A stretch of DNA of 64,000 nt, taken from NCBI GenBank assembly GCA_963775725.1, contig CAVZKA010000002.1, forward strand, positions 1,320,242 to 1,384,241, in the 5' to 3' direction. The notes under the pieces are model-generated. The model had not been told where the DNA came from. It made no database searches and worked only from the letters and a program-made list of their open reading frames with translations. Both the position numbers and the translations under genes were made by a program. Shown here one piece after another: positions 1 to 57,996 of this stretch; positions within the stretch are counted from its first letter, which is position 1; each line of letters opens with the position of its first letter. The stretch comes from an uncultured Acidobacteriota bacterium (GTDB taxonomy: Bacteria > Acidobacteriota > Thermoanaerobaculia > UBA5066 > Gp7-AA6).

Positions 1-37
1 CCTGGAGGCGTTGCGGACGCGGGGGAGGGCTGGAAGT

Positions 38-113
38 TGGAGCCGATGACCGGACTTGAACCGGTGACCTGCGGTTTACGAAACCGCTGCTCTACCAACT
101 GAGCTACATCGGC
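38..113 (-). tRNA. tRNA-Thr(CGT)
   Basis: Reverse complement GCCGATGTAGCTCAGTTGGTAGAGCAGCGGTTTCGTAAACCGCAGGTCACCGGTTCAAGTCCGGTCATCGGCTCCA folds as a cloverleaf; anticodon CGT, encoded CCA. Confidence 0.96.
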
Positions 114-160
114 CCGGGACGCGGATCTTACGGAAAGCCGGGGTCCCGGTCAAACGGGGT

Positions 161-3100
161 TCAGTCGAACCGCACCGACACGATTTTCGAGCAGCCTGGC
201 TCTTCCATGGTGACGCCGTACATGACGTCGGCGGTCTCCATGGTGCGCTTGTTGTGCGTGATGGCGATGAACTGGGTCTCTTCCGTCATGTCGCGCAGGA
301 GCTTCGTGAAGCGGTCGATGTTGGCCTCGTCGAGGGGCGCGTCGACCTCGTCGAGGATGCAGAAGGGCGAGGGTTTGAACCGGAAGATCGCCATCAGGAG
401 CGCGATCGCCGTGAGCGCCTTCTCGCCGCCCGAGAGGAGCAGGATCGACTGGTTGCGCTTGCCCGGCGGGTGCGCGTCGATCTCGATGCCGGACTCGAGC
501 ATGTCGTTCTCGTCGAGCAGCTTCATCTCCGCTTTGCCGCCCTGGAAGAGTCGCTCGAACATCTGCTTGAAGTTCTCGTTGATCTCGCGGAACGCCTCGG
601 CGAACCGCTCGGAGGAGGTCGCGTTGATCTTGCGGATGGACTCCTGGAGCTCGGCCATCGACTTGAGCAGGTCGTCGCGCTGCGTCGTCAGGAAGACGAG
701 GCGCTCGGACATCTCCTTGTGCTCCTCGAAGGCGAGGACGTTGACCGGTCCGAGCCGCTCGAGCGAGGCCACGAGCTCCGTTACCTCGGCCTCGAGGGCG
801 ACGAGCCCCTCGGGCGTCGTGTCGGCCGGCGCCTCGAGCTGCCCGGGCTCGAGGCCGAATTCTTCGCGGGCCTGGGCGACGAGGTGCTCGAGGTCGGAGG
901 CGCCGCGGGTTGCGGTGACCTCGGCTTCGAAGCGGGCCTCGCGCGCCGCATCGAGCGTGGCGCGGTCCGCACGGGTCGAAGCTCGGCCGCCTCGACCCGG
1001 GCGGCCTTCTCCTTGGCCGCTTCGACCGCGACTCCGTGGGCCTCGGCTTTCTCTTCGCGCGCGGCGAGGTTCTGCTTCTGGCGCTCGCGCGCGTCGGTCT
1101 CCTCCTGGGCGAGCTCGGCCGCGCGGAACGTGATGCGCGCCTCTTCTTCGGTGGCCTCGGCGAGGCGGCGCTCGAGGGTCGTGCGCGTCTCGAGGAGCAT
1201 GTCGCGCGCGGCCTCCATGGCGCGCCGCCGCTCGGCGGCGACCTCGGCCTCGGTCCGGCGGTGGGAAAGCTCGTCGGAGGCGGACTGGGCGAAGGCGCGG
1301 CTCTCCGACAGCGCGGCCGAGAGCATGCCGATCCGCTGGTGGGCCGTGTCTTCCGCCCCGGCGTGCGCACGCTCCTGCTCCTCGAGGGCCCGGCGCCGCG
1401 TGTCGAGGCCCGCGGCCTCGCCGGTCAGGGCGCGATGCTCCTCGGCGAGGGTGTCCCGCTCGCGGCGCAGGCGGTCGCGCTCGGCCAGGCGCTCTTCGAG
1501 CCGCGCCGCAAACGCGCTGTGCATCGCGCGCGCTTCGCGCTCCAGCTCTCGAAGGGGAGGCAGCTCGGCTTCGCCGCGCTGGCGGCTGGACTTGAGCTCC
1601 TCGACCCGACGGTCCACGCCCTCGAGCGCGGCGCGCGCATCGGCGAGGCGGCGGCCGAGCGACTCCTGGTCGCGCCGCAGAGCGAACAGTCCGGACGCTT
1701 CGGCTGCGGGCCCGGCGACGCGCACGATCGGCCCGCGCACGACCTCGCGCCCGCGGGTGACGAAGGTGTATCCGGCGTGCCGTTCGGCCAGCGCGAGGGC
1801 GTCGGAGAGCCTCTCGACGAAGGCCGTCGGCGGCAGCGCCGCGCGCTCGGCCAGGGAGAGTCCGGCGTGGTTCTCCAGGACCGCGTCCCAGCCCATCGCC
1901 CCTTCGGGCCGATCGGTCCGGGCCTCGTGGCGCCAGTCGGCGCGTACCATGCGTGCCGCGGAGAGCGAGCGCATCGCGTCGACCGCCCGCTCCACGTCAC
2001 CGGTGGCGAGCAGCGCGTCCGTGTCGGCTCCGAGGACGAGGCCGACGGCGTCTTCCCATCCCGCGCGCGGACGGATGCGGTCCGAGAGGGCTCCGTGGGC
2101 GGACAAGCCCGCTCCCCGGATCACCCCGGCGAGCTCGTTGACGCTCGTCTCCCGCGCGCGCAGGGTTTCGGCGATCGCCGCGAGCCGGTGCTCGAGCGAG
2201 CTCGAGGATTCCCGCGCGGATTCGCGGGCGGCCTCGGCCTCGACGAGGGCGGCGGCGACGCAGAGGAGCTCCTCTTCGATCCGGGTGACGCGGGTGGTCG
2301 CTTCGGCGGCGGAGGCGGCGAGCCGGGCGGCTTCCTGCTCGGCCTCGGCCGCCTCCTTCTCGCGGCCAGCGAGCTCTTCGACGATCCTGGCCGCGGCCTG
2401 ATTCAAACGCGCGAGGGACGCCGCGACGCGCTCGGCGGCGAGGTCGACCTCGTGCCGGGCGTTGCGCGTGGCGATGCGCTCTCCGGAGGCCGAGAGGGCG
2501 TGCCCCCGTGTTTCCTCGAGCTCGCGCTCGAGCATGGCGCACGTGGCCGTCGCGTCCGAGGCCTTGCGGTCCGCCTCCTCGCGGGCGAGCGAGCGGGCGC
2601 GCGCCTCGGCGACGGCGCGTTCGAGGCGGTCTTCGAGGTCCGTCAGGTCGCTCGCCGCGCGGGCCTGTTCTGCGGAGAAGTCGCGGCCCTCGCGCTCCAG
2701 GGCGGTGCGGCGGCCGGCCAGGTCGATCGCGGCCCGGCGGTTGGCGTCGAGCATGGCGTCGTCGCGCGCGATGGAAGCCTCGAGCGAGGCCAGCACCTCG
2801 CGCAGCGCGTCGCGCTGTCCGGTGGTCTCACTGGCATCCAGGCGCGCGGTGGCGAGCGCGGCCTCGGCCCGGGCGAGCGTCGCCGCGGCCTCGGCTTCGC
2901 GGTCGCGCCGCTCGTCGCGGATGCGCTCGGCCGCCCGGAGCGCTTCGCGGAGAACGTCGCCGCGGGCGCGCATGAGCGACGCCTTGCGCAGGCGCAGGAG
3001 CTCCGACTGTTCCTTGTAGCGCGCCGCCCGCGAGGCCTGGCGCTTCAGGGACGTCACGTTGCGCTCGATCTCCGAGACGATGTCGGACAGGCGCAGCAGG

Positions 3101-3669
3101 TTGCCCCTGGTCTCCTCGAGCTTGCCTTCGGCCAGGCGCTTCTTGAGCTTGTACTTCGTGATGCCGGCGGCTTCCTCGATCAGGCGCCTGCGGTCCTGCG
3201 GCTTCGTCGAGAGGACCTGGTCGATGCGGCCCTGCTCGATGACCGAGTACGCGCGCACGCCGAGGCCCGTGCCGAGCAGCTGGTCCTGGATGTCGCGCAG
3301 GCGGACCTGCTTGTCGTTGAGAAAGTATTCGCCGTCGCCGTCGCGGTAGACGCGCCGCCCCACGCGCAGCGTTCCGTCGGCGTCGCCCTTTTCGCTGTCG
3401 CCGTTGGAGGCGGTCAGGGTCAGGATGACTTCCGCCATTCCGAGCGGGCGGCGTTTGGCGGAGCCGTTGAAGATGACGTCGTCCATCTTTTCGCCGCGCA
3501 GCACCCTGGCGCTCTGCTCGCCGAGTGCCCATGCAACGGCGTCGCTGATGTTCGATTTGCCGCACCCGTTGGGCCCGACGACGGCCGTCACGGAGCCCGG
3601 GAAGGCCAGGTCCACCTTCTCGTAGAAAGACTTGAATCCGGAGATCTCGACCCGTTTTAGTCTGAGCAT
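161..3669 (-). CDS. smc: Chromosome segregation protein SMC (one apparent frameshift near 965-1000)
   Basis: N-terminal MLRLKRVEISGFKSF with Walker A GPNGCGKSN; long coiled coils with hinge; C-terminal ORF 161-772 has LSGGEK signature and CILDEVDAPLD Walker B. Joined length about 1170 aa. Confidence 0.95.
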
Positions 3670-3704
3670 CTTCGCGGAAATGTAACAAAAGGCCCCGGGG
3701 GGCG

Positions 3705-3745
3705 CCACAAGTTATTGGGGTAGGAGGGCGGGGAGGCCCAATAAC
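3705..3745. promoter_or_regulatory. Candidate operator between divergent smc and fhs (9-bp inverted repeat; left arm within an NrdR-box-like 16-mer)
   Basis: GTTATTGGG (3711-3719) and CCCAATAAC (3737-3745), 17-nt spacer; 3705-3720 reads CCACAAGTTATTGGGG. Confidence 0.4.
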
Positions 3746-3815
3746 CGGTAGGTGGAGGGATTCCGGGATCCGGACGAGAAGGCCGCCGTTTTCACCTGCT
3801 ACCATGCGCCGGCCC

Positions 3816-5486
3816 ATGAAATCCGACATCCAGATCGCCCAGGAAGCCAGGCTGCGAACGATGGAGGATGTCGCACGCGACGTCGGCATCGAGCCGGCCG
3901 ACTTCATCCCCTACGGCCGCGACAAGGCGAAGATCTCCATCTCGGCAATCGCGCGGCGCGAGGGCAGACCCGAGGCGCCGCTGGTGCTCGTCTCCGCAAT
4001 CACGCCGACACCCGCGGGCGAGGGCAAGTCGACGACGACCGTCGGCCTCGGCCAGGCGCTCAACCGACTCGGCAAGCGCGCGATCATCGCACTGCGCGAG
4101 CCCTCGCTCGGGCCCTGCTTCGGCGTCAAGGGCGGCGCGGCGGGCGGCGGGTACTCGCAGGTCGTTCCCATGGAGGACATCAACCTCCACTTCACCGGCG
4201 ACTTTCCGGCGATCACGGCCGCACACAACCTGCTCGCCGCCATGATCGACAACCACCTGCACCACGGCAACGCGCTCGGGATCGACCAGCGCGACATCCC
4301 GTTCCGCCGCGTGCTCGACATGAACGACCGCGCGCTGCGCGACACGGTCATCGGCCTCGGCGGCAAGATCAACGGCGTGCCGCGCGAGACCGGATTCGAC
4401 ATCACCGTGGCCTCCGAGGTCATGGCGATTCTCTGCCTGGCGAGGGACCTCAAGGACCTGAAGGAGCGCTGCGGCGCGATCGTCGTGGGCTACACACGCG
4501 ACGCCGAGCCGATCCGCGCGCGGGACCTCAAGGCCCATGGCGCCATGGCGGCCCTGTTGAAGGACGCCATCCACCCGAATCTCGTCCAGACGCTCGAGGG
4601 CACGCCGGCGCTGGTGCACGGCGGTCCCTTCGCCAACATCGCGCACGGCTGCAACTCGATTCTGGCGACGAAGATCGCGATGCGCTACGGCGACATCGCG
4701 GTCACGGAGGCCGGGTTCGGCTTCGACCTCGGGGGCGAGAAGTTCCTCGACATCAAGTGCGCCTACGCCGACATCTGGCCCTCCGTCGTCGTCCTCGTCG
4801 CCACCGTGCGCGCCCTCAAGATGCACGGCGGCGCGCCCAAGGACATGCTGGCGGTCGAGGACCTCGCGGCCCTGTCGCGCGGAGTCCTGAACCTCGAGCG
4901 GCACCTCGACAACGTCCGGATCTTCGGGCTGCCGGCCGTCGTCGCCATCAACCGCTTCCCGACCGACACGCCCGCGGAGCTCGCCTTCCTCGAGAAACGC
5001 TGCACCGAGCTCGACGTCAAGGTGGCTCTCTCGGAGGTCTTCACGCGCGGCGGGGCCGGGGGAGAGGACCTCGCCCGCCTCGTGCTCGAGGAGATCGCCA
5101 CCGGCGCCGCCCGGTACCGACCGCTCTATCCCTGGGACCGGCCTCTGGCCGACAAGATCGAGATCATCGCCCGCCGTCTCTACGGAGCCGGGGGCGTCTC
5201 CTTCTCGAAGGAGGCCGAGAATCGCCTGGCCCGGTACGAGAAACAGGGGTTCGGCAACCTGCCGATCGTCATCGCCAAGACACCGTACTCTTTTTCGGAC
5301 GATCCGAAGAAGGGCGGGCGGCCCTCGGGTTTCACGCTGCACGTCGACAAGACGCGCCTGTTCGCGGGGGCCGGGTTCGTCGTCGCGATTTGCGGAGACA
5401 TCATGACGATGCCAGGACTTCCCAAGAAGCCCGCCGCCGAAACGATCGACGTGGACGACGACGGCCGCGTATCGGGCCTTTTCTGA
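3816..5486 (+). CDS. fhs: Formate--tetrahydrofolate ligase
   Basis: MKSDIQIAQ start; TPAGEGKSTTT, KGGAAGGGYSQVVPMEDINLHFTGD, HGGPFANIAHGCNS, IMTMPGLP motifs. Confidence 0.97.
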   Translation: MKSDIQIAQEARLRTMEDVARDVGIEPADFIPYGRDKAKISISAIARREGRPEAPLVLVSAITPTPAGEGKSTTTVGLGQALNRLGKRAIIALREPSLGPCFGVKGGAAGGGYSQVVPMEDINLHFTGDFPAITAAHNLLAAMIDNHLHHGNALGIDQRDIPFRRVLDMNDRALRDTVIGLGGKINGVPRETGFDITVASEVMAILCLARDLKDLKERCGAIVVGYTRDAEPIRARDLKAHGAMAALLKDAIHPNLVQTLEGTPALVHGGPFANIAHGCNSILATKIAMRYGDIAVTEAGFGFDLGGEKFLDIKCAYADIWPSVVVLVATVRALKMHGGAPKDMLAVEDLAALSRGVLNLERHLDNVRIFGLPAVVAINRFPTDTPAELAFLEKRCTELDVKVALSEVFTRGGAGGEDLARLVLEEIATGAARYRPLYPWDRPLADKIEIIARRLYGAGGVSFSKEAENRLARYEKQGFGNLPIVIAKTPYSFSDDPKKGGRPSGFTLHVDKTRLFAGAGFVVAICGDIMTMPGLPKKPAAETIDVDDDGRVSGLF

Positions 5487-5598
5487 CAACTCAAGTCTTC
5501 GTACAAATGACCGGAGGTATGTGCATGAACCCTCGACATGTATTGCACGCTCCGGATGAAAGTGTGTAAGGTGGGGTTGCTTTAGGAGACCTCCAGTC

Positions 5599-6699
5599 AT
5601 GTTGACCCTCGAAGTCCGTCGGCGGCCGGGTACGGGTGCGGAGATGCATCGGATCACGGGTCCGAGCGCGACCGTCGGCGCCTCCTCGGGCAACGAAATT
5701 GTCGTGCGCGCGCGCGGCGTCTACGGGCGGCACCTGCGCCTGCTCGAGCGCGACGGCGCGTATCACCTCGACCTCTTCCGCGGCATCGGCGCCGTGCAGT
5801 TGAACGGCCGCGAGTTCTCCGGCGGCGCGATTGCGCCGGGCGACCGCATCACGATCGGCGAAGCGACGATCACGGTCGTGGACGCGGCCCCCGCGATGCG
5901 GCCCACGCCCGTCGGCGAGATGCCCGAGGGCGACCTCGCCGCGCCGCCCCCGGCGTCGGCCTCGCCCGCGCCGCAGCTGCCGGCGACGGAGGTGGAGTAC
6001 CGGGGCCTGCGCAGCAGCGCCTACCGGATCTGTCGCCAGGCCCGCTCGGCCGAGGATCTCGCGACGGAGCTGACGGATTTTCTGGACCGCGAGCTGCCGC
6101 CGTCGGAGTGGGCGGTCGGCGAATTCTCCGCGATCGCCGGATTCCGGCCCCTCGCCTCGACCTTCCGGGAGAACCCCGCCCTGCCGCCGCGGATGGTGCA
6201 GGACATTCGCTCCGGTGAGCGCCTCGCGCGCTCCGAGAGCGTCACCGGCGTGTTGACGCTCGTCGTCGAGCCTCCCGCCGAGGGCGGCGGTTGCGCCGGC
6301 ATCCTCGTCCGCGAGACCCCGCGACTTGCGGCGCGCGCGGTGCTCTTCCTCGAGGAGCTCGTCCAGGTCGCCGGCGTGGCGTTCGCGAGCGCGGTGGCGG
6401 TTGCCGAAGAGGGCGCGCCCCCGGTCCGGCAGACCCAGGAAGTGCCGGTCAGTCCGCCCCTCTCGCCGGTCGAGGCGAGCCCCGCCGAAATCGTCCTGCG
6501 GTCGACCGACGACCTGAAGAAGATCGTCGAGACGGTCGAGCGCGAGGTCATCGACCGCGCCATGCGCCGGGTCGAGGGCAATCAGAGCCGCGGCGCGCAG
6601 ATCCTGAACATCTCGCGCGGCTCGCTGATCGCCAAGCTGAAGGAGTTCGGCGTGCCGGACTACCGCTACATGCGCCGCGAGCGGGGACGCCGGGGCTAG
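5599..6699 (+). CDS. FHA-like domain + Fis-type HTH (HTH_8) protein without an AAA+ domain
   Basis: N-terminal FHA-like segment (TVGASSGNEIVV...GRH...NG...GDRITIG); C-terminal EREVIDRAMRRVEGNQSRGAQILNISRGSL; no Walker A or GAFTGA; GGAG RBS upstream. Confidence 0.7.
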   Translation: MLTLEVRRRPGTGAEMHRITGPSATVGASSGNEIVVRARGVYGRHLRLLERDGAYHLDLFRGIGAVQLNGREFSGGAIAPGDRITIGEATITVVDAAPAMRPTPVGEMPEGDLAAPPPASASPAPQLPATEVEYRGLRSSAYRICRQARSAEDLATELTDFLDRELPPSEWAVGEFSAIAGFRPLASTFRENPALPPRMVQDIRSGERLARSESVTGVLTLVVEPPAEGGGCAGILVRETPRLAARAVLFLEELVQVAGVAFASAVAVAEEGAPPVRQTQEVPVSPPLSPVEASPAEIVLRSTDDLKKIVETVEREVIDRAMRRVEGNQSRGAQILNISRGSLIAKLKEFGVPDYRYMRRERGRRG

Positions 6700-7302
6700 C
6701 TAGTCGCTCCGCGTCCGCCGCCGGGAGTCGATCTCCGGCCGGACCAGCATCCACCACAGCACGAACGGCGCGGCGAAGCGGCCGGCGATCTGGTAGAAGT
6801 GGAATCCTGCCGCCCAGAAGTTGCTCGCGTAGGTCCCGTAGTGCGCCTCGCTCCAGGGCCCCAGGCGCGTGGCGTAGACCGACTCGACCTGGAAGACCAG
6901 CGCGAGCACGTGGATCCCCCAGAGAGCGGCGGCCGCCAGCCAGAAGCGCAGAAAGCGCCGGGGCTCGAGGGGACGCGGGACGAAGGCGAAGAGCGCGGCG
7001 AGCAGGACGAAGTTGAAGTGGATGTCCGCGGCCGGCAGCCCCGGCCGGGGCGAGGCGGGCGGAAAGTCGGACCGGTCGACGCGGATCTCGCCGCCGACGG
7101 CCGAGAGCGACGTGACGGCAGGGCTCTCGAAGGATCGGATCAGGAAGCCCGCGGCCGCCGCGAGCGTCTTCTCGTAGGGCCCGGCGAAGGCGAACCAGAA
7201 CGCGAGTCCGGCCGCAAACCCCGCGGCCATGCGCGCCGCCGCGCGCCCGTCGAGCCGGAGCCGTGTGCCGGCCGGCGGCTCAGCGGCGTTCGGACGGACC
7301 AT
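6700..7302 (-). CDS. Exosortase-associated multi-pass membrane protein
   Basis: MVRPNAAEPP... with several hydrophobic helices (AGLAFWFAFAG, DIHFNFVLLAALFAF, FAAPFVLWWMLV); start overlaps the exosortase 3' end by 23 nt. Confidence 0.6.
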   Translation of the reverse strand: MVRPNAAEPPAGTRLRLDGRAAARMAAGFAAGLAFWFAFAGPYEKTLAAAAGFLIRSFESPAVTSLSAVGGEIRVDRSDFPPASPRPGLPAADIHFNFVLLAALFAFVPRPLEPRRFLRFWLAAAALWGIHVLALVFQVESVYATRLGPWSEAHYGTYASNFWAAGFHFYQIAGRFAAPFVLWWMLVRPEIDSRRRTRSD

Positions 7303-7838
7303 GCGCTCCGACCGCCGCGGCGGCCCGCGTCCGCTGCTCGCGCGACGCCCAGAAAAGGAAGAGGAGCACGCTGAAGAGCACGACCACCGACTGCCAGATG
7401 ACCGTGTGCGAAGAGGAGAAGAGCGCCGGCCGGTGCGCGCCGATCCAGAAGAGCGAGACGACGCGCACGAGGTTGCAGCAGCTGGATCGCGGCGAACCCG
7501 GCGGCCAGACCGAGGATCCGCCGCCGCCACGGGCGCGGGGAAGGCGAGGACGGCGGCCCGAAGAGCAGCGCGGCCTCGACCCCGTTGCAGCCGTTCTCGA
7601 TGTTGACAGAGAAGGCCCCGGAGCGGATCTCGGTGCCCGCGACCGAGACCTTCTCGCCGATCACCGACAGGAGCGCCGCCGAGACGCGCGCCACGCCGGC
7701 CGTGAACGGCACGATCACCGCGTCGTTGACGGGCCGCGAGGCGACGACCACGTAGAAGACGACGAGCAGCGCCACGAAGCGCAGGAGGAAGAAGGCGGAA
7801 CGGCGGTTGGACGAGGCCCGGGTCACGTTTTCGCTCAT
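7280..7838 (-). CDS. xrtH: Exosortase H-like (XrtH) membrane cysteine transpeptidase (two apparent indels near 7475 and 7555)
   Basis: Reconstructed FLLRFVALL...FSVNIENGCNGVEAALLF...AVLAFPAPW...NLVRVVSLFWIG...SHTVIWQ contains the Cys, Arg and His of exosortase/archaeosortase; about 185 aa. Confidence 0.8.
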
Positions 7839-8302
7839 CGCGGCGCATTATCCAGCGATTCCTGGTGCGCGAGGATTGCGCCGCACAGGTCGCGCAGGCC
7901 GGAGGGCAGCGTCAGCAGCAGCTCGCCCTGCGCGTTCAGGACCACCTGCTCCGTGACGGCGGAGGCGAGGAGGTTGCCGGCTTCGCTGCGGATCTCGTAG
8001 TCCATGACGAAGCGCGCGACATCCGGCGGGCGCAGCCGCGCGGTGACGCGCAGCGTCTGGCCCGGCGTCGCCGGCGCCCGGTACCTGAGCTCCATGCGCG
8101 TGATCGGCACCTTGTAGCCCATGGCCAGGGCGCGCGCCGCCGTGAAGCCGAAGCGCGCGGTCAGGGCCTCGCGGGCCTGCTCGAGGTAGAGCGCGTAGTG
8201 GCCGTGCCACACGACGCCGTAGGGGTCGCACTCCGCGAAGCGGACCGGGATCTCGAGGGTGGAGCCGCGCAGCGGGTCGGCCCGGCGCACCGACGCGGTC
8301 AC
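7835..8302 (-). CDS. Hot-dog fold acyl-CoA/ACP thioesterase (YbgC/4HBT-like)
   Basis: VRFAECDPYGVVWHGHYALYLEQARE motif, RYRAPA; GTG start overlaps upstream stop (GTGA). Confidence 0.85.
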   Translation of the reverse strand: MTASVRRADPLRGSTLEIPVRFAECDPYGVVWHGHYALYLEQAREALTARFGFTAARALAMGYKVPITRMELRYRAPATPGQTLRVTARLRPPDVARFVMDYEIRSEAGNLLASAVTEQVVLNAQGELLLTLPSGLRDLCGAILAHQESLDNAPR

Positions 8303-9418
8303 GCCGCCGCCTCGAGGACCGCGGCGAGGAAGTTGCCGCCGGCGCCGAAGGAGTTGACGAGGGCGCGCCGGGGAGCGCCGTTGCCCGCCGCGAGGGCGCG
8401 CCCGGCGGCGGCGACGATCTGCGCACCGCCGGCGGCGGCCATTTCGCCGATCGCGTCCTTGACCGCGAGCTCGGCGCGCGGAGCGACTCGCCGAAGATCG
8501 ACCGCATGACGTCCGCCTCCGCGCGGTCCATCTCCTCGACGCCGTCGCGCGAGGAAAGCCAGAGACCGATGTCTTCGGGCTTGACGCCCGCGTCGTCGAG
8601 GGCGCCGCGGATGGCCCGTCCGATGGCGGCCGAGTCCGGGGCGAAGCGGTACGGCTCGGACGCGACGCCGGCCATCGCGATCCCGGACGAGGCGCGCGAG
8701 CGCCTTCGCGCCCCGGTCCCGCGCGCACTCCTCCTGCTCGAGCAGGACGACGAACGCGCCCTCTCCCTGCACGATCCCGGAGGCGCTCTTTTCGCCGCGC
8801 AACGCCCCGACCCGGTCGAAGCCCATCGCGTAGAAGAAATTCCACTCGTCCACGGCTCCCGCGAGCATCGCCTTCGCGCGGCCCGAGCGAGAGGGCGAGC
8901 GCGGAGTAGAGCAGGGCATTCAGGGCGGAGGGGTCCTTCTGCGTGATGGTCACATTGGGCCCGAAGATCTTGAGCTCGATCGAGATCTGCGAGGCGGGCG
9001 CGTTGGCGACGGTGTTCGGGAAGTGAAACGGGGGCGCGGCTTCCGGCGACTCGAGGAAGAGCACGCGCAGGAACTCGGTGAGCGCGCCCGCGCCGGCGGA
9101 GCCCGTGCCCATCGCGATGCCGATCGCCTCGGGCGCCTCGGCGATCCGGTACCCTGCCTCCGCAACGGCCTGCATGCACGCGATGAGGGCGAACTGGCTG
9201 CCGCGGTCGAGGCGGCGCGCCTTCATCGCCGGGATCTCGGGCTGCGGCGTGAAGCCCTCGTAGCGCGCGGCGTGCGTGGCCTGCAGGTCCTTGCGCTCCT
9301 CGGGCGGGAGCGGCCGGACGGCGCAGTCGCCCGCCGTCAGGCGCGCGAAGAACTCGGGCGCGCTGCGGCCGAGGGGAGAGACCGCGCCGGTTCCGGTGAC
9401 GAGCCCGCGTGAGGCCAC
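8299..9418 (-). CDS. Beta-ketoacyl synthase chain-length-factor-like subunit (several apparent indels)
   Basis: Thiolase-fold KS pieces: GLVTGTGAVSPLG, FPNTVANAPASQISI, GEGAFVVLLE, LVNSFGAGGN. The active-site Cys region reads ITQKDPS and the His-His dyad is absent. Confidence 0.75.
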
Positions 9419-9422
9419 CGGC

Positions 9423-10659
9423 TCACGCCCCTTCGTAGCGCGCGAGGACGACGACCGAGCTGTTGCCGCCGAAGGCGAACGAGTTCGAGAGGGCGACGCG
9501 GACGTCGTGATCCCGCGCGGCGTTGGGGACGTAGTCGAGGTCGCACGCGGGGTCCGGGTTCTCGTAGTGGATCGTCGGCGGCACCTTGCCGTCGCGCACG
9601 TCAGGGCCGTCGCCACCGCTTCGATCGCCCCGGAGGCGCAGAGGCAGTGTCCGATCATGGACTTGATGGAGGAGATCGGGATCCGCCGCGCGCGCTCTCC
9701 GAGGGCCGCCTTGAGCGCCGCGGTTTCCGCCGAGTCGTTCTGCGGCGTGGCCGTGCCGTGTGCGTTGACGTAGTCCACTTCGCCCGGGTTCAAGCCCGCG
9801 TTGTCGAGCGCGGCCGCGATCGTGCGTCCGCCGGCCGTGCCCGAGGGATCGGGCGCGGTCATGTGGTACGCGTCGGACGTGACGCCGTAGCCGCAGGAAC
9901 TCCGCGAGGACCGGGGCGCCGCGGCGGCGCGCGTGCCCGGCCTCCTCGAAGACGATGATGCCGGCGGCTTCGCCGATCGAGAGGCCCTTGCGCTCGCGGT
10001 CGAAGGGGCGGCAGGGGTCGGGGTCCACCGAGCGCAGCGAGTTGAACCCGCCGTAGGTCAGCCGGGCGAGCACGTCCGATCCACCCGTCAGGACGACGTC
10101 CGCCAGGCCCGCGGCGATCGCGTCGAAGCGCGTATCCCATCGCGTTGGCCGAGGAGGAGCAGGCCGTCGTGATCGTGGACTTGATGCCTTCCAGGCCGAA
10201 GCGCTGCGCGACGCGATCGGTGATCGAGTCGGGCAGGTGGTTCAGGACCTTCGAGGGGCGCGCCTTCTTGCCGCGCAGGTAGAGCTCGAAGAAGGCCTCC
10301 GAATCGATGAGGCCCGAGGTGCCGCCGCCGAGGATCACGCCCATGCGCGTCGGATCCTCGCGCGCGAAGTCGAGGCCGGCGTTGGCGATGGCCTCGCGCG
10401 CCGCGGCGACGCCCATCCGGTCGGCGCGGGACATGCGGCGCCGTTCGAAGGCCGTCAGGAAGCCGTCCGGGATCTCCGGAACCTCGGCCGCGGTCTGCGT
10501 GCGGTAGGCCGAGGGGTCGAAGAGCGAGAGCGGCCGGATGCCGCAGGCGCCCGCGAGCAGGCCCTCCCACGACGCCTCGAGCGTCGAGCCGACGGCCGTG
10601 ACGGCTCCCATGCCGGTGACGACGACGCGTCGTTGTCGGGCCACGCGCGATTTTGACAT
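9423..10659 (-). CDS. Beta-ketoacyl-ACP synthase, FabF/KS-alpha type (about three apparent indels)
   Basis: RVVVTGMGAV, TACSSSANA (catalytic Cys), VNAHGTATPQND, KSMIGH, SNSFAFGGN across three frames. Confidence 0.88.
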
Positions 10660-10724
10660 AGCCGCCCTCGCGGGGCCGCGGGCTGTCCAGGGTGCCGCGT
10701 TGACAGCCGGGGCATAATCGCCGG

Positions 10725-11160
10725 ATGGGCGAAGAACGCGTCGACTGGCACACCTACTTCATGAACATCGCGCGGCAGGTCGCGACGCGGTCCACCTGCC
10801 CCCGCAAGCACGTCGGCGCGGTCGTCGTCCGCGACCGCACCATCCTGTCGACGGGCTACAACGGCTCGATCCGGGGGCTGCCGCACTGCGCGGACGTCGG
10901 CTGCCTGATGGAGGACGGCCACTGCGTCGCCACCGTGCATGCCGAGGCCAACGCGATCATCCAGGCCGCGCAAGAACGGCGTCGCCATCCACGGCGCCGA
11001 GATCTACACCACCGCCAGCCCCTGCTGGCCCTGCTTCAAGCTGATCGCCAACTCGAGCCTCTCCCGCGTCTACTTCGGCGAGTTCTACCGCGACACGCGG
11101 TCGATCGCCGTCGCGAAGGATGCCGGCATCGAACTCATTAGCCTCGCTCCTCAGGATTGA
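10725..11160 (+). CDS. dCMP/cytidine deaminase family protein (ComEB-like; indel near 10970)
   Basis: WHTYFMNIA...RSTCPRKHVGAV...TGYNG, HAEANAII and SPCWPC zinc motifs in two frames. Confidence 0.88.
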
Positions 11161-11226
11161 CTCGTCGAGCGGCGCAGCGGCCGTAGCCGCGGGAGCGAGA
11201 GCGAGCAAAGCGAGCGGTAGCGACGG

Positions 11227-11922
11227 TCAGACCTCACCCCCACTCACTTCTCCTGGAGCGAGGATGCGGAGGCACTCCTCGAGGTTCTGGCGGGAGCTCG
11301 CCGAGAGCTGGAAGAAGCGGCACCCGATGCCGCGGTCGTTCTCGCGCCCGAGGCGCACGACGATGGCCTCGGCGACGACGGATCGGATGCCGCGCTCGAC
11401 CGGGACGTCGAACGACACGTCGAGGCGCGCGCCGATGGGCTGGCGCGCCTCGGTGCGGACGAAGAAGCCGCCCCGCGACAGGTCCCGGATCGTGCCGGTG
11501 TGCTGCATCCCGTCGCGCCAGAAGGTGATCGACCACTCGACCGCCGAGCGGGCCTCCTCGCGGGGCACGACCTGCAGGAACCGCCGGATCTCCCCGAAGA
11601 AGGCCTCGGGATCGAGGGGCAGCGGCAGCGTGACGTCCGCTCCGGCACGCCGCGCGGCCTCCTCCGAGCCCGCCGGCCCGACGATGGCGATCGGTGTGCG
11701 CGCAAACGCCGGATCGGCCTTGAGGACGCGGCAGAGGTCGAAGCCGGTCATGGGCGAGATCCCCGCCTTGACGACGATCATCTGGGGCTTTTCGCGCCGT
11801 GCGATGTCGAGCGCTTCCGTGCCGCCCGTCGCCGTCAGCGTCTCGCAGCCGGTGCGCTTCAGTACCTCCTCGGCCGCGCCCCGGAAGAGGCCGCTGTCGT
11901 CGACGAGGAGGATGGAGGGCAT
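11227..11922 (-). CDS. Pseudo-receiver + PilZ domain protein
   Basis: ILLVDDS receiver start, but the phospho-Asp site reads PQMIVVK; PilZ motifs REEAR and DLSRGG intact. Confidence 0.8.
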   Translation of the reverse strand: MPSILLVDDSGLFRGAAEEVLKRTGCETLTATGGTEALDIARREKPQMIVVKAGISPMTGFDLCRVLKADPAFARTPIAIVGPAGSEEAARRAGADVTLPLPLDPEAFFGEIRRFLQVVPREEARSAVEWSITFWRDGMQHTGTIRDLSRGGFFVRTEARQPIGARLDVSFDVPVERGIRSVVAEAIVVRLGRENDRGIGCRFFQLSASSRQNLEECLRILAPGEVSGGEV

Positions 11923-11937
11923 GCTGCAAATCATAGC

Positions 11938-12023
11938 GGGGTCTGACCCCCGCAGGGGGTCTGACCCCTTTTCTCGGATCGGAGAGGGAACCTGGGGTCA
12001 GACCCCTTGCGGGGTCAGACCCC
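11938..12023. repeat. REP/MITE-like element of four GGGGTCWGACCCC palindromes
   Basis: GGGGTCTGACCCC at 11938 and 11956; GGGGTCAGACCCC at 11994 and 12011; the two pairs form a larger inverted repeat. Confidence 0.85.
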
Positions 12024-12024
12024 A

Positions 12025-12741
12025 TCAGACCACCCTGGGCCTCAGCACGATCTCTCCGTGCAGGACGTTGGGCGGGGACGTCAGCACGTACAGCAGGGCT
12101 CGCACCGTGTCCTCGATCCGCAGCATCTGCGGCCGATCGAGCGTGGGCCGGAAGCGGTCGAAAAAATCGGTCTCGACCGAACCCGGACAGATCGCGGTGA
12201 CCCGGATGTTGGCCGGTTTCAACTCCGCCGCGAGGGCGCGCGTGAATCCGACGAGGCCCGCCTTGGCCGCGCAGTAGACGGTGCCCTCGGCGAACCCCTC
12301 GAGGCCGCCGACCGACGAGATGTTGACGATGTCCGAGGGCGCGCTCTTGAGGAGCGCATGGAGGCTCGCCTGCGTCATGTAGATCGCGGAGGAGAGGTTG
12401 GTCTCGAGCATCTCGGCGATCTCGGACCGCCGGGTTTCGAGCAGCGGCGCGCGGAACCCGAGTCCCGCGTTGTTGACGAGGATGTCCAGGCGCTTGTAGC
12501 GGGAGAGCAGCACGTCCACGAGGTCGTAGAGCGCCGGCACCGACCGCAGGTCCACGACGTGGTAGGCGGCCTCGCCGCCGGCCTCGGTGATTTCCTGCAC
12601 CGCCTCGCGCAGTTTTTCCTCGCGCCGGGCGACGAGGAAGACCTTCGCGCCGGCCGCGGCCAGGGCGAGCGCGAATCCCCTTCCCAGGCCCGACGACGCC
12701 CCCGTGAGCAAGGCGACCTTTCCCTGAAGCGACTGGTCCAC
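12025..12741 (-). CDS. Short-chain dehydrogenase/reductase
   Basis: ALLTGASSGLG, LVNNAG, YCAAK; GTG start at 12741 preferred from the promoter position. Confidence 0.9.
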   Translation of the reverse strand: MDQSLQGKVALLTGASSGLGRGFALALAAAGAKVFLVARREEKLREAVQEITEAGGEAAYHVVDLRSVPALYDLVDVLLSRYKRLDILVNNAGLGFRAPLLETRRSEIAEMLETNLSSAIYMTQASLHALLKSAPSDIVNISSVGGLEGFAEGTVYCAAKAGLVGFTRALAAELKPANIRVTAICPGSVETDFFDRFRPTLDRPQMLRIEDTVRALLYVLTSPPNVLHGEIVLRPRVV

Positions 12742-12771
12742 GGCTCGCGGAAATGTATCATCCGCGCGCGC
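12742..12771. promoter_or_regulatory. Bidirectional promoter with overlapping -10 hexamers
   Basis: TACATT (minus, 12752-12757) and TATCAT (plus, 12756-12761) share TA; each is 10 nt from its start codon. Confidence 0.55.
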
Positions 12772-13828
12772 ATGGACACGATCTCGCACGGCATCGCGGG
12801 CTCCGTGTTCGCGCGTTCCTTTTCCGACCGGCCGGGCGCGCGGACCGCATTTCTCGCTGGGAGCCGTCGGGGCGATGGTCCCGGACCTCGACTTCCTGTT
12901 TCTCTCGACGCGGCTCGACTACCTGCGCGATCACCGCAGCTGGACGCACTCGTTCCTGGTGCTTCCGTTTCTCGCCCTCGGGATCGCCCTCCTCGTGAGG
13001 GCGTTCTGGCGGACGGCGCGCCTTGCGACCCTCTGGCTCTTCGCCGCGATCGGCGTCGCGACGCACATCCTCTTCGACTGGATCACGAGCTTCGGCACGA
13101 TGTTCTGGACGCCCGTCACGCGAACGCGCTACTCGCTCGACTGGGTGTTCATCCTCGATCCCTGGTTCACCGGGATCGTGCTCGTCAGCCTGATCCTGTC
13201 GCTGGTCTTTCGCGGCCGGCAGCGCCGGATCGCTTCCGCCGGCGCGGGCCTGCTCTGCGCGTACATCGCCTTTTGCGCCTGCGTGCACGCCCGGGCGCTC
13301 GCGATCTGGAAGCGGATGGACGCGCCCCCCGCCGGCGCCACGGTCGCCGTGCTGCCGCAGTTCCTCTCGCCCTTCCGGTGGCTCGGCCTCTCGGAGCGCG
13401 GCAACGAGATCCACGTGGCCTTCTTCGACGTCGGCCCCTTTGCCCGCGGCGCGGCGGACCCGAAGCCCCCGGCGACGTGGAGGGAGATCCTGTCGAGCCT
13501 GCGGGATTTCTACCCGCCTCCCGAGCGCGCGAAGGTCCAGCGCTTCGAGAGGCCGCCCGCCTCGCCGGCCCTGGCAGCGGCCCGCGCCCTTCCCGAGGTC
13601 GGCATCTACATGGCATTCGCCCGCTTTCCGCTCGAGACGGTCTCCGCGGCGCCCGATGGAGGCGCGGAGGTCATCGTCCAGGACCTGCGCTTCCTCCCAT
13701 GGTTCACCGGGCCGTGGGAGCGCGGCGGCGCGGATGGGGTCCGCCGCCAGCCGTTCGTCTACCGCGTGCTCTTCGACGCGGCGCTACGCCCCGTCGAGCG
13801 GGGCTTCGTGCGCGGCGGCCGGCGCTGA
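12772..13828 (+). CDS. Metal-dependent membrane hydrolase, YdjM family (indel near 12860)
   Basis: MDTISHG, PDLD, HRSWTHS, THILFDWITSFGT, DP motifs. Confidence 0.85.
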
Positions 13829-14832
13829 CGCGGCGGCGGGTCCGGATCGCCCGGAGCCGGCGTCCCCGGCCACGTAGGAGTACTCGGGCTCGGGCGCGCG
13901 CGTCAGCGCCTCCGAGACGCCGGCGTAGTAGCCGATCTTGATCAGGAGGCGCACGAAGACGAAGACCTGCTGGGTGAGGATCAGCGGCACGAGCGCGACG
14001 CGCGCCTCGCCGCCGGCCGAGGGGTCGATCACCAGCCAGGCCACGTAGAGCGCGGACGTCGAGACCGCGTACAGGCCGAGGATCCCGAAGAGGCGCAGGG
14101 GCCGGCCGATCGCACCCCCGATGCCGAAGAGGAAGCGCGAGACCGGGGGCAGGTCCGGCCGCGCCACCCAGACCGTGCGCACGGAGTCGGCCAGGAGCTT
14201 GATGACCGCGAGCGCCACGACGAGCGCGAGCAGGCGCACGCCGGTCACGGCGAGCGCCGCCTGCTCGGTGTGGAGGTCCCGGACGCGGCTGGCCAGGGCT
14301 TCGCCCGATCGGACGTAGATCCATTCGTAGGCCGCGAACGCGGCCCCGAGCGAGGCGAACGTGAAGACGAGGAACGCCGGCATTCGCCGCATTCCCTCCC
14401 GGCCGAACGTCACGAGCGAGCTCGAGGGTTCGCGCAGCACGCCGAGCGCCCCTCCGAGCGCGAACGCGTGGAGCACGGTCGCGAGCAGCGCCAGCGAGAA
14501 CGCCGTGGCGCCGATCCCGCGCATTCCGGGCAGCTCCGACCAATGGATGCCCTCCGACGAGAGCAGGCCCGTGGCGAGCTCTGGGAAGTTGCCGAGCAGG
14601 TCCGGATGGACCCGGCGCACGGTCTCCCACCAGCCGTAATCCGGGATGGCCACCATCTTCTGGCCGGCGGGCGAGCGGTCGAGCAGCGCGTGGAGCGTGT
14701 TGCTGACGGGCAGGATGATCGCGGCCGCGAGCATGAGCTGGATCAGCCAGAGCGCCACGGCGAGGTAGGGCTTGGAGAGCGAGAGCTGGAGCCCCCGCAG
14801 GAAGCACCCGACGGCGCGCGGCCCGCGCCGGC

Positions 14833-14836
<4 letters not shown>
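13784..14836 (-). CDS. Hypothetical multi-pass membrane protein coupled to the M1 peptidase
   Basis: About 350 aa with 5-6 hydrophobic segments; GTG start overlaps the M1 stop (GTGA). Confidence 0.65.
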
Positions 14837-18888
<4,052 letters not shown>

Positions 18889-50484: not shown

Positions 50485-50561
50485 TGGTAGCGGCGCAGGG
50501 ACTTGAACCCCGGACCTAGCGGATATGAGCCGCTTGCTCTAACCAACTGAGCTACGCCGCC
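50485..50561 (-). tRNA. tRNA-Met(CAT), elongator type
   Basis: Reverse complement GGCGGCGTAGCTCAGTTGGTTAGAGCAAGCGGCTCATATCCGCTAGGTCCGGGGTTCAAGTCCCTGCGCCGCTACCA; G1-U72, no GGG/CCC anticodon stem. Confidence 0.93.
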
Positions 50562-57921: not shown

Positions 57922-57996
57922 GGGAGGTTAGCTCAGCGGTAGAGCGGCTGCTTTACACGCAGTTGGTCGGGGGTTCGATCCCCTCACCTCCCACCA
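57922..57996 (+). tRNA. tRNA-Val(TAC)
   Basis: GGGAGGTTAGCTCAGCGGTAGAGCGGCTGCTTTACACGCAGTTGGTCGGGGGTTCGATCCCCTCACCTCCCACCA cloverleaf. Confidence 0.96.

Follow-up and report, generated by a model that had tools for sequence, protein, structure and literature searches.

A five-gene operon joining a ketosynthase–thioesterase trio to an exosortase H pair in Thermoanaerobaculia: probably two autonomous modules

Five consecutive minus-strand genes in the genome of an uncultured Acidobacteriota bacterium (Thermoanaerobaculia; UBA5066; Gp7-AA6) encode, from 10659 to 6700, a ketosynthase (KS), a KS-like partner, a hot-dog thioesterase (TE), exosortase H (XrtH) and an XrtH-associated membrane protein. 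They lie in a stretch of 64,000 nucleotides (64 kb, ~70% G+C; GenBank assembly GCA_963775725.1, contig CAVZKA010000002.1, positions 1,320,242 to 1,384,241), which was analysed as a whole and is referred to as the window. An earlier, sequence-only reading had suggested that an operon joins KS, partner and TE to an exosortase and may provide an acyl chain for sorted proteins. The operon is indeed a real and conserved unit, but for the acyl chain we find nothing beyond the adjacency of the genes, and the two parts separate in other genomes. We propose that the operon probably combines two autonomous modules, putatively co-transcribed in one clade of Thermoanaerobaculia, and that their adjacency is not biochemical. 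This proposal draws on the identities of the genes, their catalytic residues, the structure of the operon, the purifying selection acting on the genes and the finding that each module is distributed independently of the other. The lineage-specific fusion of a known XrtH cassette to a fatty acid synthase (FAS)-like trio is new, and the evidence leans to an ordinary operon juxtaposition.

Five genes, their junctions and their products

Genes in the window were read from the three-frame translation and by tblastn with intact orthologs. The operon consists of the following features:

9423..10659, minus strand: KS, FabF-like beta-ketoacyl-acyl carrier protein (ACP) synthase, ~411 aa after three frame corrections; ATG at 10659, stop at 9425-9423
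8299..9418, minus strand: KS-like partner, resembling a chain length factor (CLF), ~370 aa after three frame corrections and one in-frame 3-nt insertion (8404); GTG at 9418, 4 nt after the KS stop, stop at 8301-8299
7835..8302, minus strand: TE, hot-dog thioesterase of the 4HBT/YbgC type, 155 aa, intact; GTG at 8302 in a GTGA overlap with the partner, stop at 7837-7835; catalytic Asp at 8227-8225 (AECDPYGVV)
7280..7838, minus strand: XrtH, exosortase H, 185 aa after three indel corrections; ATG at 7838 in an ATGA overlap with the TE, stop at 7282-7280
6700..7302, minus strand: divergent XrtH-associated membrane protein, 200 aa, intact; 23-nt overlap with XrtH

The five genes and all four junction coordinates given by the sequence-only reading were correct. 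Two plus-strand genes border the operon, one for dCMP deaminase upstream (10725, divergent) and one for an FHA/HTH_8 regulator downstream (5599-6699, convergent). A consensus scan revealed no sigma-70-like promoter and no terminator between the five genes. The hexamer GATAAT, noted in the sequence-only reading as a possible promoter of XrtH's own, is present 8 nt upstream of its ATG, within the TE codons Leu-Asp-Asn.

The triad of the KS is formed by Cys (10161-10159) and two His residues (9760-9758 and 9649-9647). The protein passes the NCBIfam model NF005589 for a FabF subfamily (426 bits, cutoff 387) and remains under the cutoff of the fabF equivalog TIGR03150 (423 bits, cutoff 493.75). Its best match in the PDB is Listeria FabF (3o04) with 349 bits, followed by the actinorhodin KS (254), the ketosynthase of 6kxd (245) and the KS of 6qsp (158), which we take to be the aryl-polyene enzyme ApeO. 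Orthologs with an unbroken frame comprise 395-407 aa. Judged by these matches, the KS is a FabF-family paralog.

In the partner, comparison with FabF structures places Asp (8935-8933, motif TQKDPS) at the position of the active-site Cys and Arg and Glu at those of the two His, and these three residues are invariant in 28/28 orthologs. The partner matches the N and C domains of Pfam ketoacyl-synt and no NCBIfam model at cutoff; its top structural matches are likewise FabF. CLFs of aromatic polyketide synthases (PKS) have Gln at the Cys position and act in decarboxylative priming. This Gln is missing from the partner, in which the Asp of TQKDPS is invariant. By its residues and matches, the partner is a catalytically dead KS-like protein that is CLF-like in architecture only and FAS-like in sequence. 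Its junction with the KS is a 4-nt gap or a 1-nt overlap among the orthologs. Two distinct chains named 3-oxoacyl-ACP synthase are also found in PDB 9s5h/9s5i, where chain B reaches 331 bits to the KS, and chain C 111 bits to the partner and 212 to the KS.

The TE scores 64.9 bits against Pfam 4HBT_2 (PF13279, cutoff 25.5) and 55.2 bits against TIGR00051, under the cutoff of 68.7. Its PDB matches are 1z54, 6fdg and YbgC, and its catalytic Asp aligns with that of 1z54 and 6fdg. The HMM scores and structure alignments thus uphold the previous gene calls of a KS with Cys/His/His, a Cys-less partner and a hot-dog TE.

After frame correction, XrtH reaches 127.9 bits against TIGR04177 (cutoff 86), and the runner-up, XrtX, stays at 72 bits under its cutoff of 170. 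The catalytic residues are Cys 7589-7587 (NGCNG), Arg 7465-7463 (NLVR) and His 7408-7406 (SSHT), in agreement with the XrtH type and the Cys/Arg/His set already recognized from the sequence. Among 59 diverse relatives Asn, Arg and His never vary, and at least 90% have the Cys. There are 1138 database homologs, many of which are labelled exosortase H by JGI or NCBI; all of the close homologs derive from metagenome-assembled genomes of Thermoanaerobaculia or Acidobacteriota.

The fifth protein matches a single family, NF041730 ('exosortase H-associated membrane protein'), with 18.9 bits, below the cutoff of 35; other acidobacterial copies reach 22-30 bits against the same cutoff, and orthologs show faint matches to Pfam PF28117 (XrtH_assoc). 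Its gene lies immediately downstream of XrtH in essentially all of the 80 genome loci described below. Because of the exclusive match to NF041730, the faint matches to PF28117 and the conserved position, we take it to be a divergent member of the XrtH_assoc family, and the curated cutoffs evidently miss this acidobacterial branch. The AlphaFold AF2 model (pLDDT 81) predicts four to five helices and a small beta-hairpin loop; the loop motif RSDFPPxSPRPGLP (7074-7033, minus strand), located between the first helix and the remainder of the protein, is invariant. A Foldseek comparison of this model with the PDB gave no match at E <= 0.001. With known exosortase H systems the pair has in common an XrtH score above cutoff, the Cys/Arg/His residues, the short format of ~185 aa and a downstream membrane partner. 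It differs in that this partner falls under the curated cutoff and in that the KS-partner-TE trio stands upstream, whereas distant XrtH loci have adjacent candidate substrates with IPTLxxWG tails.

The two modules in related and distant genomes

Scanning GTDB with one genome for each species yielded 80 XrtH loci with 89-50% identity, around which open reading frames were chosen by their G+C content at the three codon positions (GC3>GC1>GC2). The order KS-partner-TE-XrtH-membrane partner is found in 26/80 loci and additionally in L002/L003, L166 and L168, which corresponds to ~30 Thermoanaerobaculia genomes. These linked loci are collinear over the whole 16-kb flank, from the M1 peptidase to SMC, and the genes of the neighbourhood are housekeeping genes (SMC, FTHFS, dCMP deaminase, ligA). 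The overlap of TE and XrtH is 4 nt in 23 of the 28 loci measured, and that of XrtH and the membrane partner is 23 nt in most. With at least 29 related genomes sharing the five-gene order, the arrangement is not due to chance and the operon is real and clade-wide.

The sequence-only reading had regarded its proposal as vulnerable should the adjacency be unique to this genome or break in close relatives. It is not unique, given the ~30 genomes that share the operon, but it does break in L084, L085 and L170/L171. These loci, found via the partner (74-76% identity), have the order dCMP deaminase-KS-partner-TE, and the convergent HTH_8 regulator comes directly after the TE, with no XrtH pair in between. 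Locus L084 lies on the same 3.2-Mb contig as L021, where the XrtH pair is located beside uvrA, ~2 Mb away from the trio. Conversely, ~50 further acidobacterial XrtH loci (50-70% identity) contain the XrtH-partner pair and neither KS, KS-like partner nor TE within 7 kb. The neighbours of such free-standing pairs are divergent pyrR/pyrB/pyrC, uvrA, or MarC and a GGDEF-EAL protein. A large protein encoded downstream of XrtH in L021 and L028 was considered as a substrate and rejected, as it is a response-regulator/EAL protein with a MarC-like membrane protein as neighbour. Neighbour-joining trees were built for the partner, for XrtH and for KS, partner and TE concatenated. In them the unlinked genomes stand at two separate places among the linked ones, and one fusion followed by at least two separations would be the simplest history that these trees indicate. 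Since related genomes hold the two parts separately, adjacency alone is no proof of joint function.

We also collected 80 distant XrtH loci from metagenomes, with 32-70% identity to the query, whose relatives pass TIGR04177. Homologs of KS, KS-like partner and TE were found in 0/80 of these loci, 27/80 of which include at least 3 kb of upstream sequence. At least ten of the distant loci encode adjacent proteins whose C-terminus consists of IPT[LV]S[EQ]WG followed by a hydrophobic helix and a cluster of basic residues, which is the IPTLxxWG-CTERM signal that gave the family its name. In L087, L089, L091, L100, L109, L117, L119, L128, L129 and L144, between one and three such proteins are located beside XrtH, with tails of IPT[LV]S[EQ]WGLI, helix and RRR. 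Proteins with such tails are candidate substrates of the canonical XrtH system. Because the distant loci carry tails of the IPTLxxWG type and not KS or TE, the characteristic neighbour of canonical XrtH appears to be a substrate gene rather than lipid genes. A motif search for IPTLxxWG tails returned none in the 64-kb window or near XrtH in 85 acidobacterial loci, and a search of the window for C-termini with a transmembrane helix plus basic residues gave nothing convincing. We infer that acidobacterial XrtH systems keep their substrates elsewhere in the genome.

Joint function or juxtaposition

KS-CLF pairs are heterodimers, and the KS and the dead partner may likewise associate into one, which would extend an acyl chain on the general ACP of the cell, with housekeeping reductive enzymes acting in trans. 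The TE would then free the product as a free, possibly 3-oxo, acid. In the second module XrtH and its membrane partner would, as expected from the exosortase family, cleave the C-terminal sorting signal of exported proteins encoded elsewhere. Most simply, the adjacency of the two modules would be a lineage-specific operon arrangement, possibly with shared envelope-related regulation, and not a lipid-to-protein pathway.

The alternative is a functional coupling in which the proteins sorted by XrtH depend on a dedicated acyl chain or lipid produced by KS, partner and TE, be it as anchor, as the accepting lipid of a transpeptidation-like reaction or as a component of the membrane required for sorting. 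We consider this idea, modelled on ArtA with PssA/PssD, to be rather unlikely, although several points weigh in its favour and against two autonomous modules. The five genes are connected by overlapping stop and start codons in ~30 genomes, and the 4-nt overlap of TE and XrtH persists although XrtH has diverged to ~62% identity, which fits selection for co-expression. At least one genome with split modules (L084/L021) has retained both of them. In the distant acidobacterial XrtH locus L064 (4113-10219), a TE homolog with 48% identity is encoded 2.4 kb upstream of XrtH. None of the acidobacterial XrtH loci has a substrate gene next to it, so that the system of this lineage differs from the canonical one. 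Furthermore, the co-occurrence of trio and XrtH was judged from local contexts and not genome-wide, and the trees are midpoint-rooted without support values and therefore indicative only. Finally, there is a precedent in archaea: artA-pssA-pssD synteny is confined to Methanosarcina, and PssA and PssD, the archaetidylserine synthase and decarboxylase that make the ethanolamine head group, a plausible nucleophile, are required for ArtA-dependent lipid anchoring in Haloferax (PMC7157517). Since a clade-limited link between sortase and lipid genes proved to be functional in that case, clade-limited synteny by itself does not refute a coupling. Both arrangements share a sortase-superfamily gene beside lipid-synthesis genes in one lineage only. 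However, genetic dependence was shown for ArtA and enzymes that make a head group, whereas the present operon encodes a condensing pair and a hydrolase.

Against a coupling stand the adjacency broken at least twice and the much wider distribution of XrtH, which elsewhere adjoins substrates or unrelated genes. A hydrolytic TE would yield a free acid and not an activated acyl donor. No acyltransferase or ligase is encoded in the operon or the window, and neither tblastn with E. coli AcpP as query nor a motif search found an ACP in the window or related loci. In the literature searched there is no report of a lipid anchor on any bacterial exosortase substrate. The operon of KS, partner, TE and XrtH is likewise without a description there, and the sequence-only reading also knew of no described exosortase operon with KS/CLF. 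Acyl metabolism is not foreign to exosortase loci as such: families associated with the exosortase A (EpsH/XrtA) system include acyl-CoA ligase, ACP and hydrolase genes (TIGRFAM). Those genes, however, belong to large proteobacterial loci for exopolysaccharide (EPS) and PEP-CTERM proteins, represent other families and include no KS-partner pair. A lipid module joined to an exosortase gene would be a concrete lead to the acceptor of exosortase-transferred substrates, in the same way as the artA-pssA synteny was in archaea. It is nevertheless unlikely that exosortase H was recruited in this clade into a lipid operon in which KS, dead KS and TE supply an unusual acyl lipid for the attachment or sorting of XrtH substrates. 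If true, it would give the link between ArtA and PssA/PssD its first counterpart in bacteria and provide the first clue to an exosortase attachment target, but hope for such a lead is lowered by modules that move independently and by canonical XrtH loci that carry substrates and not lipid genes.

Another explanation concerns the trio itself, which could be part of an aryl-polyene or type II polyketide pathway whose remaining genes lie elsewhere. An active KS gene followed by a translationally coupled, Cys-less partner of KS fold is shared with KS-CLF heterodimers (actinorhodin 1tqy, the 6kxd pair, the 6qsp KS), aryl-polyene clusters contain a hot-dog thioesterase in the same operon as is the case here, and the combination with a 4HBT thioesterase recalls ApeO/ApeC/ApeK and KS-CLF systems. 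The PDB matches to 6kxd and 6qsp also point in this direction. We nevertheless find the idea quite improbable. By score the KS is FabF-like and far nearer to FabF than to the actinorhodin, 6kxd or 6qsp enzymes; the partner also matches FabF best and has the set Asp/Arg/Glu and not one of the Gln/His/His type, with Asp in place of the aromatic-CLF Gln. Neither a dedicated ACP, ketoreductase (KR) or dehydratase (DH) accompanies the trio, no second KS was found within 64 kb, and the context is one of housekeeping genes and not a biosynthetic cluster. By the features tested, the trio does not appear to be an aryl-polyene or aromatic PKS fragment. The locus remains of use. It defines a five-gene operon found throughout one clade of an abundant soil lineage that is uncultured, and it provides a FabF-like KS together with a TE and a 'dead' partner whose Asp/Arg/Glu set is invariant, a trio that occurs with or without XrtH.

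Frame breaks in this copy and neighbouring genes

Taken as it stands, the sequence interrupts the reading frames of KS, partner and XrtH, each of which needs three corrections, while the TE and the fifth gene need none. The indels are located as follows:

KS: ~10128, 9895 and 9599
partner: ~8887, 8689 and 8474
XrtH: 7553, ~7534 and 7475

A codon-usage Viterbi map of the whole window, in which same-strand frame breaks without a nearby stop codon were recorded, revealed 16 frame breaks in 64 kb. Seven of them fall within 7.4-10.2 kb, where two more were detected by alignment alone; this amounts to a density of ~2.5-3 per kb versus ~0.15 per kb elsewhere. The other putative indels, about nine over the remaining 61 kb, are at 979, 10970, 12856, 21970, 29462, 45617, 47755, 57140 and 62482, and those in SMC (979), the dCMP deaminase gene (10970) and YdjM (12856) were confirmed by alignment. 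Most indels of the window are 1-nt insertions outside homopolymers. Their strong clustering in the operon and their position mostly outside homopolymers would fit a decaying operon, in which the nine frameshifts are real and KS, partner and XrtH are pseudogenes.

Such decay is highly improbable. Once the indels are removed, comparison with the nearest intact ortholog gives dN/dS values of 0.057 (KS), 0.099 (partner) and 0.255 (XrtH). The corrected genes are indistinguishable in dN/dS from the intact orthologs L005 and L006, with no excess dN (KS: 0.020 versus 0.022-0.027 for L005 and L006), whereas nine independent indels should bring a visible excess of substitutions. Two loci with ~93% nucleotide identity, L166 on a 350-kb contig and L167 on a short-read Logan contig, show none of the nine indels; their genes are intact and encode 395, 370, 155, 185 and 200 aa. 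The long-read-style L166 (ENA ERZ25039467 contig_9710, 1-17276) combines this intact operon with dozens of similar 1-nt indels in FTHFS, SMC and the M1 peptidase, FTHFS and SMC being essential, and its gene calls are broken into pieces there. As it is implausible that all of these genes are dead, patchy indel noise seems to be a property of this assembly type. On the grounds of the dN/dS values, the absence of the indels from L166 and L167 and the noise in L166 itself, the nine indels are most likely assembly or consensus errors and not gene decay, and we reject the view that the three genes are pseudogenes. The frameshifts should be taken as a warning of assembly noise in this sequence. At the start of the KS, near window position 10646, the closest GTDB relative (L001/L004) and L166 differ from the window by 1 nt, and the KS of L001 and L166 is therefore called 16 residues short (395 aa), without RRVVVTGMG. 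The N-terminus RRVVVTGMG in the window is canonical, so that the difference at 10646 lies with L001 and L166.

An Rfam scan of the window returned nothing besides three tRNAs, Thr(CGT) at 38-113, Met(CAT) at 50485-50561 and Val(TAC) at 57922-57996, none of which is relevant to the operon. Beyond the dCMP deaminase gene, the minus strand encodes a response-regulator-PilZ protein (11227-11934) and a short-chain dehydrogenase/reductase (SDR) with a KR-type Pfam match (12025-12789), both of which are kept beside the KS trio in linked and unlinked genomes alike. The SDR could in principle act as supplier of ketoreductase activity, and it belongs to a separate transcription unit. The FHA and HTH_8 regulator encoded at 5599-6699 (plus strand) comprises 366 aa and lacks the sigma-54 AAA+ domain. 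It adjoins the TE in the unlinked genomes L084, L085 and L170 and the XrtH pair in L064. At the same distance from XrtH as the TE homolog, the latter locus also encodes a second hot-dog protein, which is PaaI-like, and a histidine kinase is encoded in between on the opposite strand; KS and KS-like partner are absent, and a full-length FHA-sigma54-HTH_8 regulator is convergent downstream.

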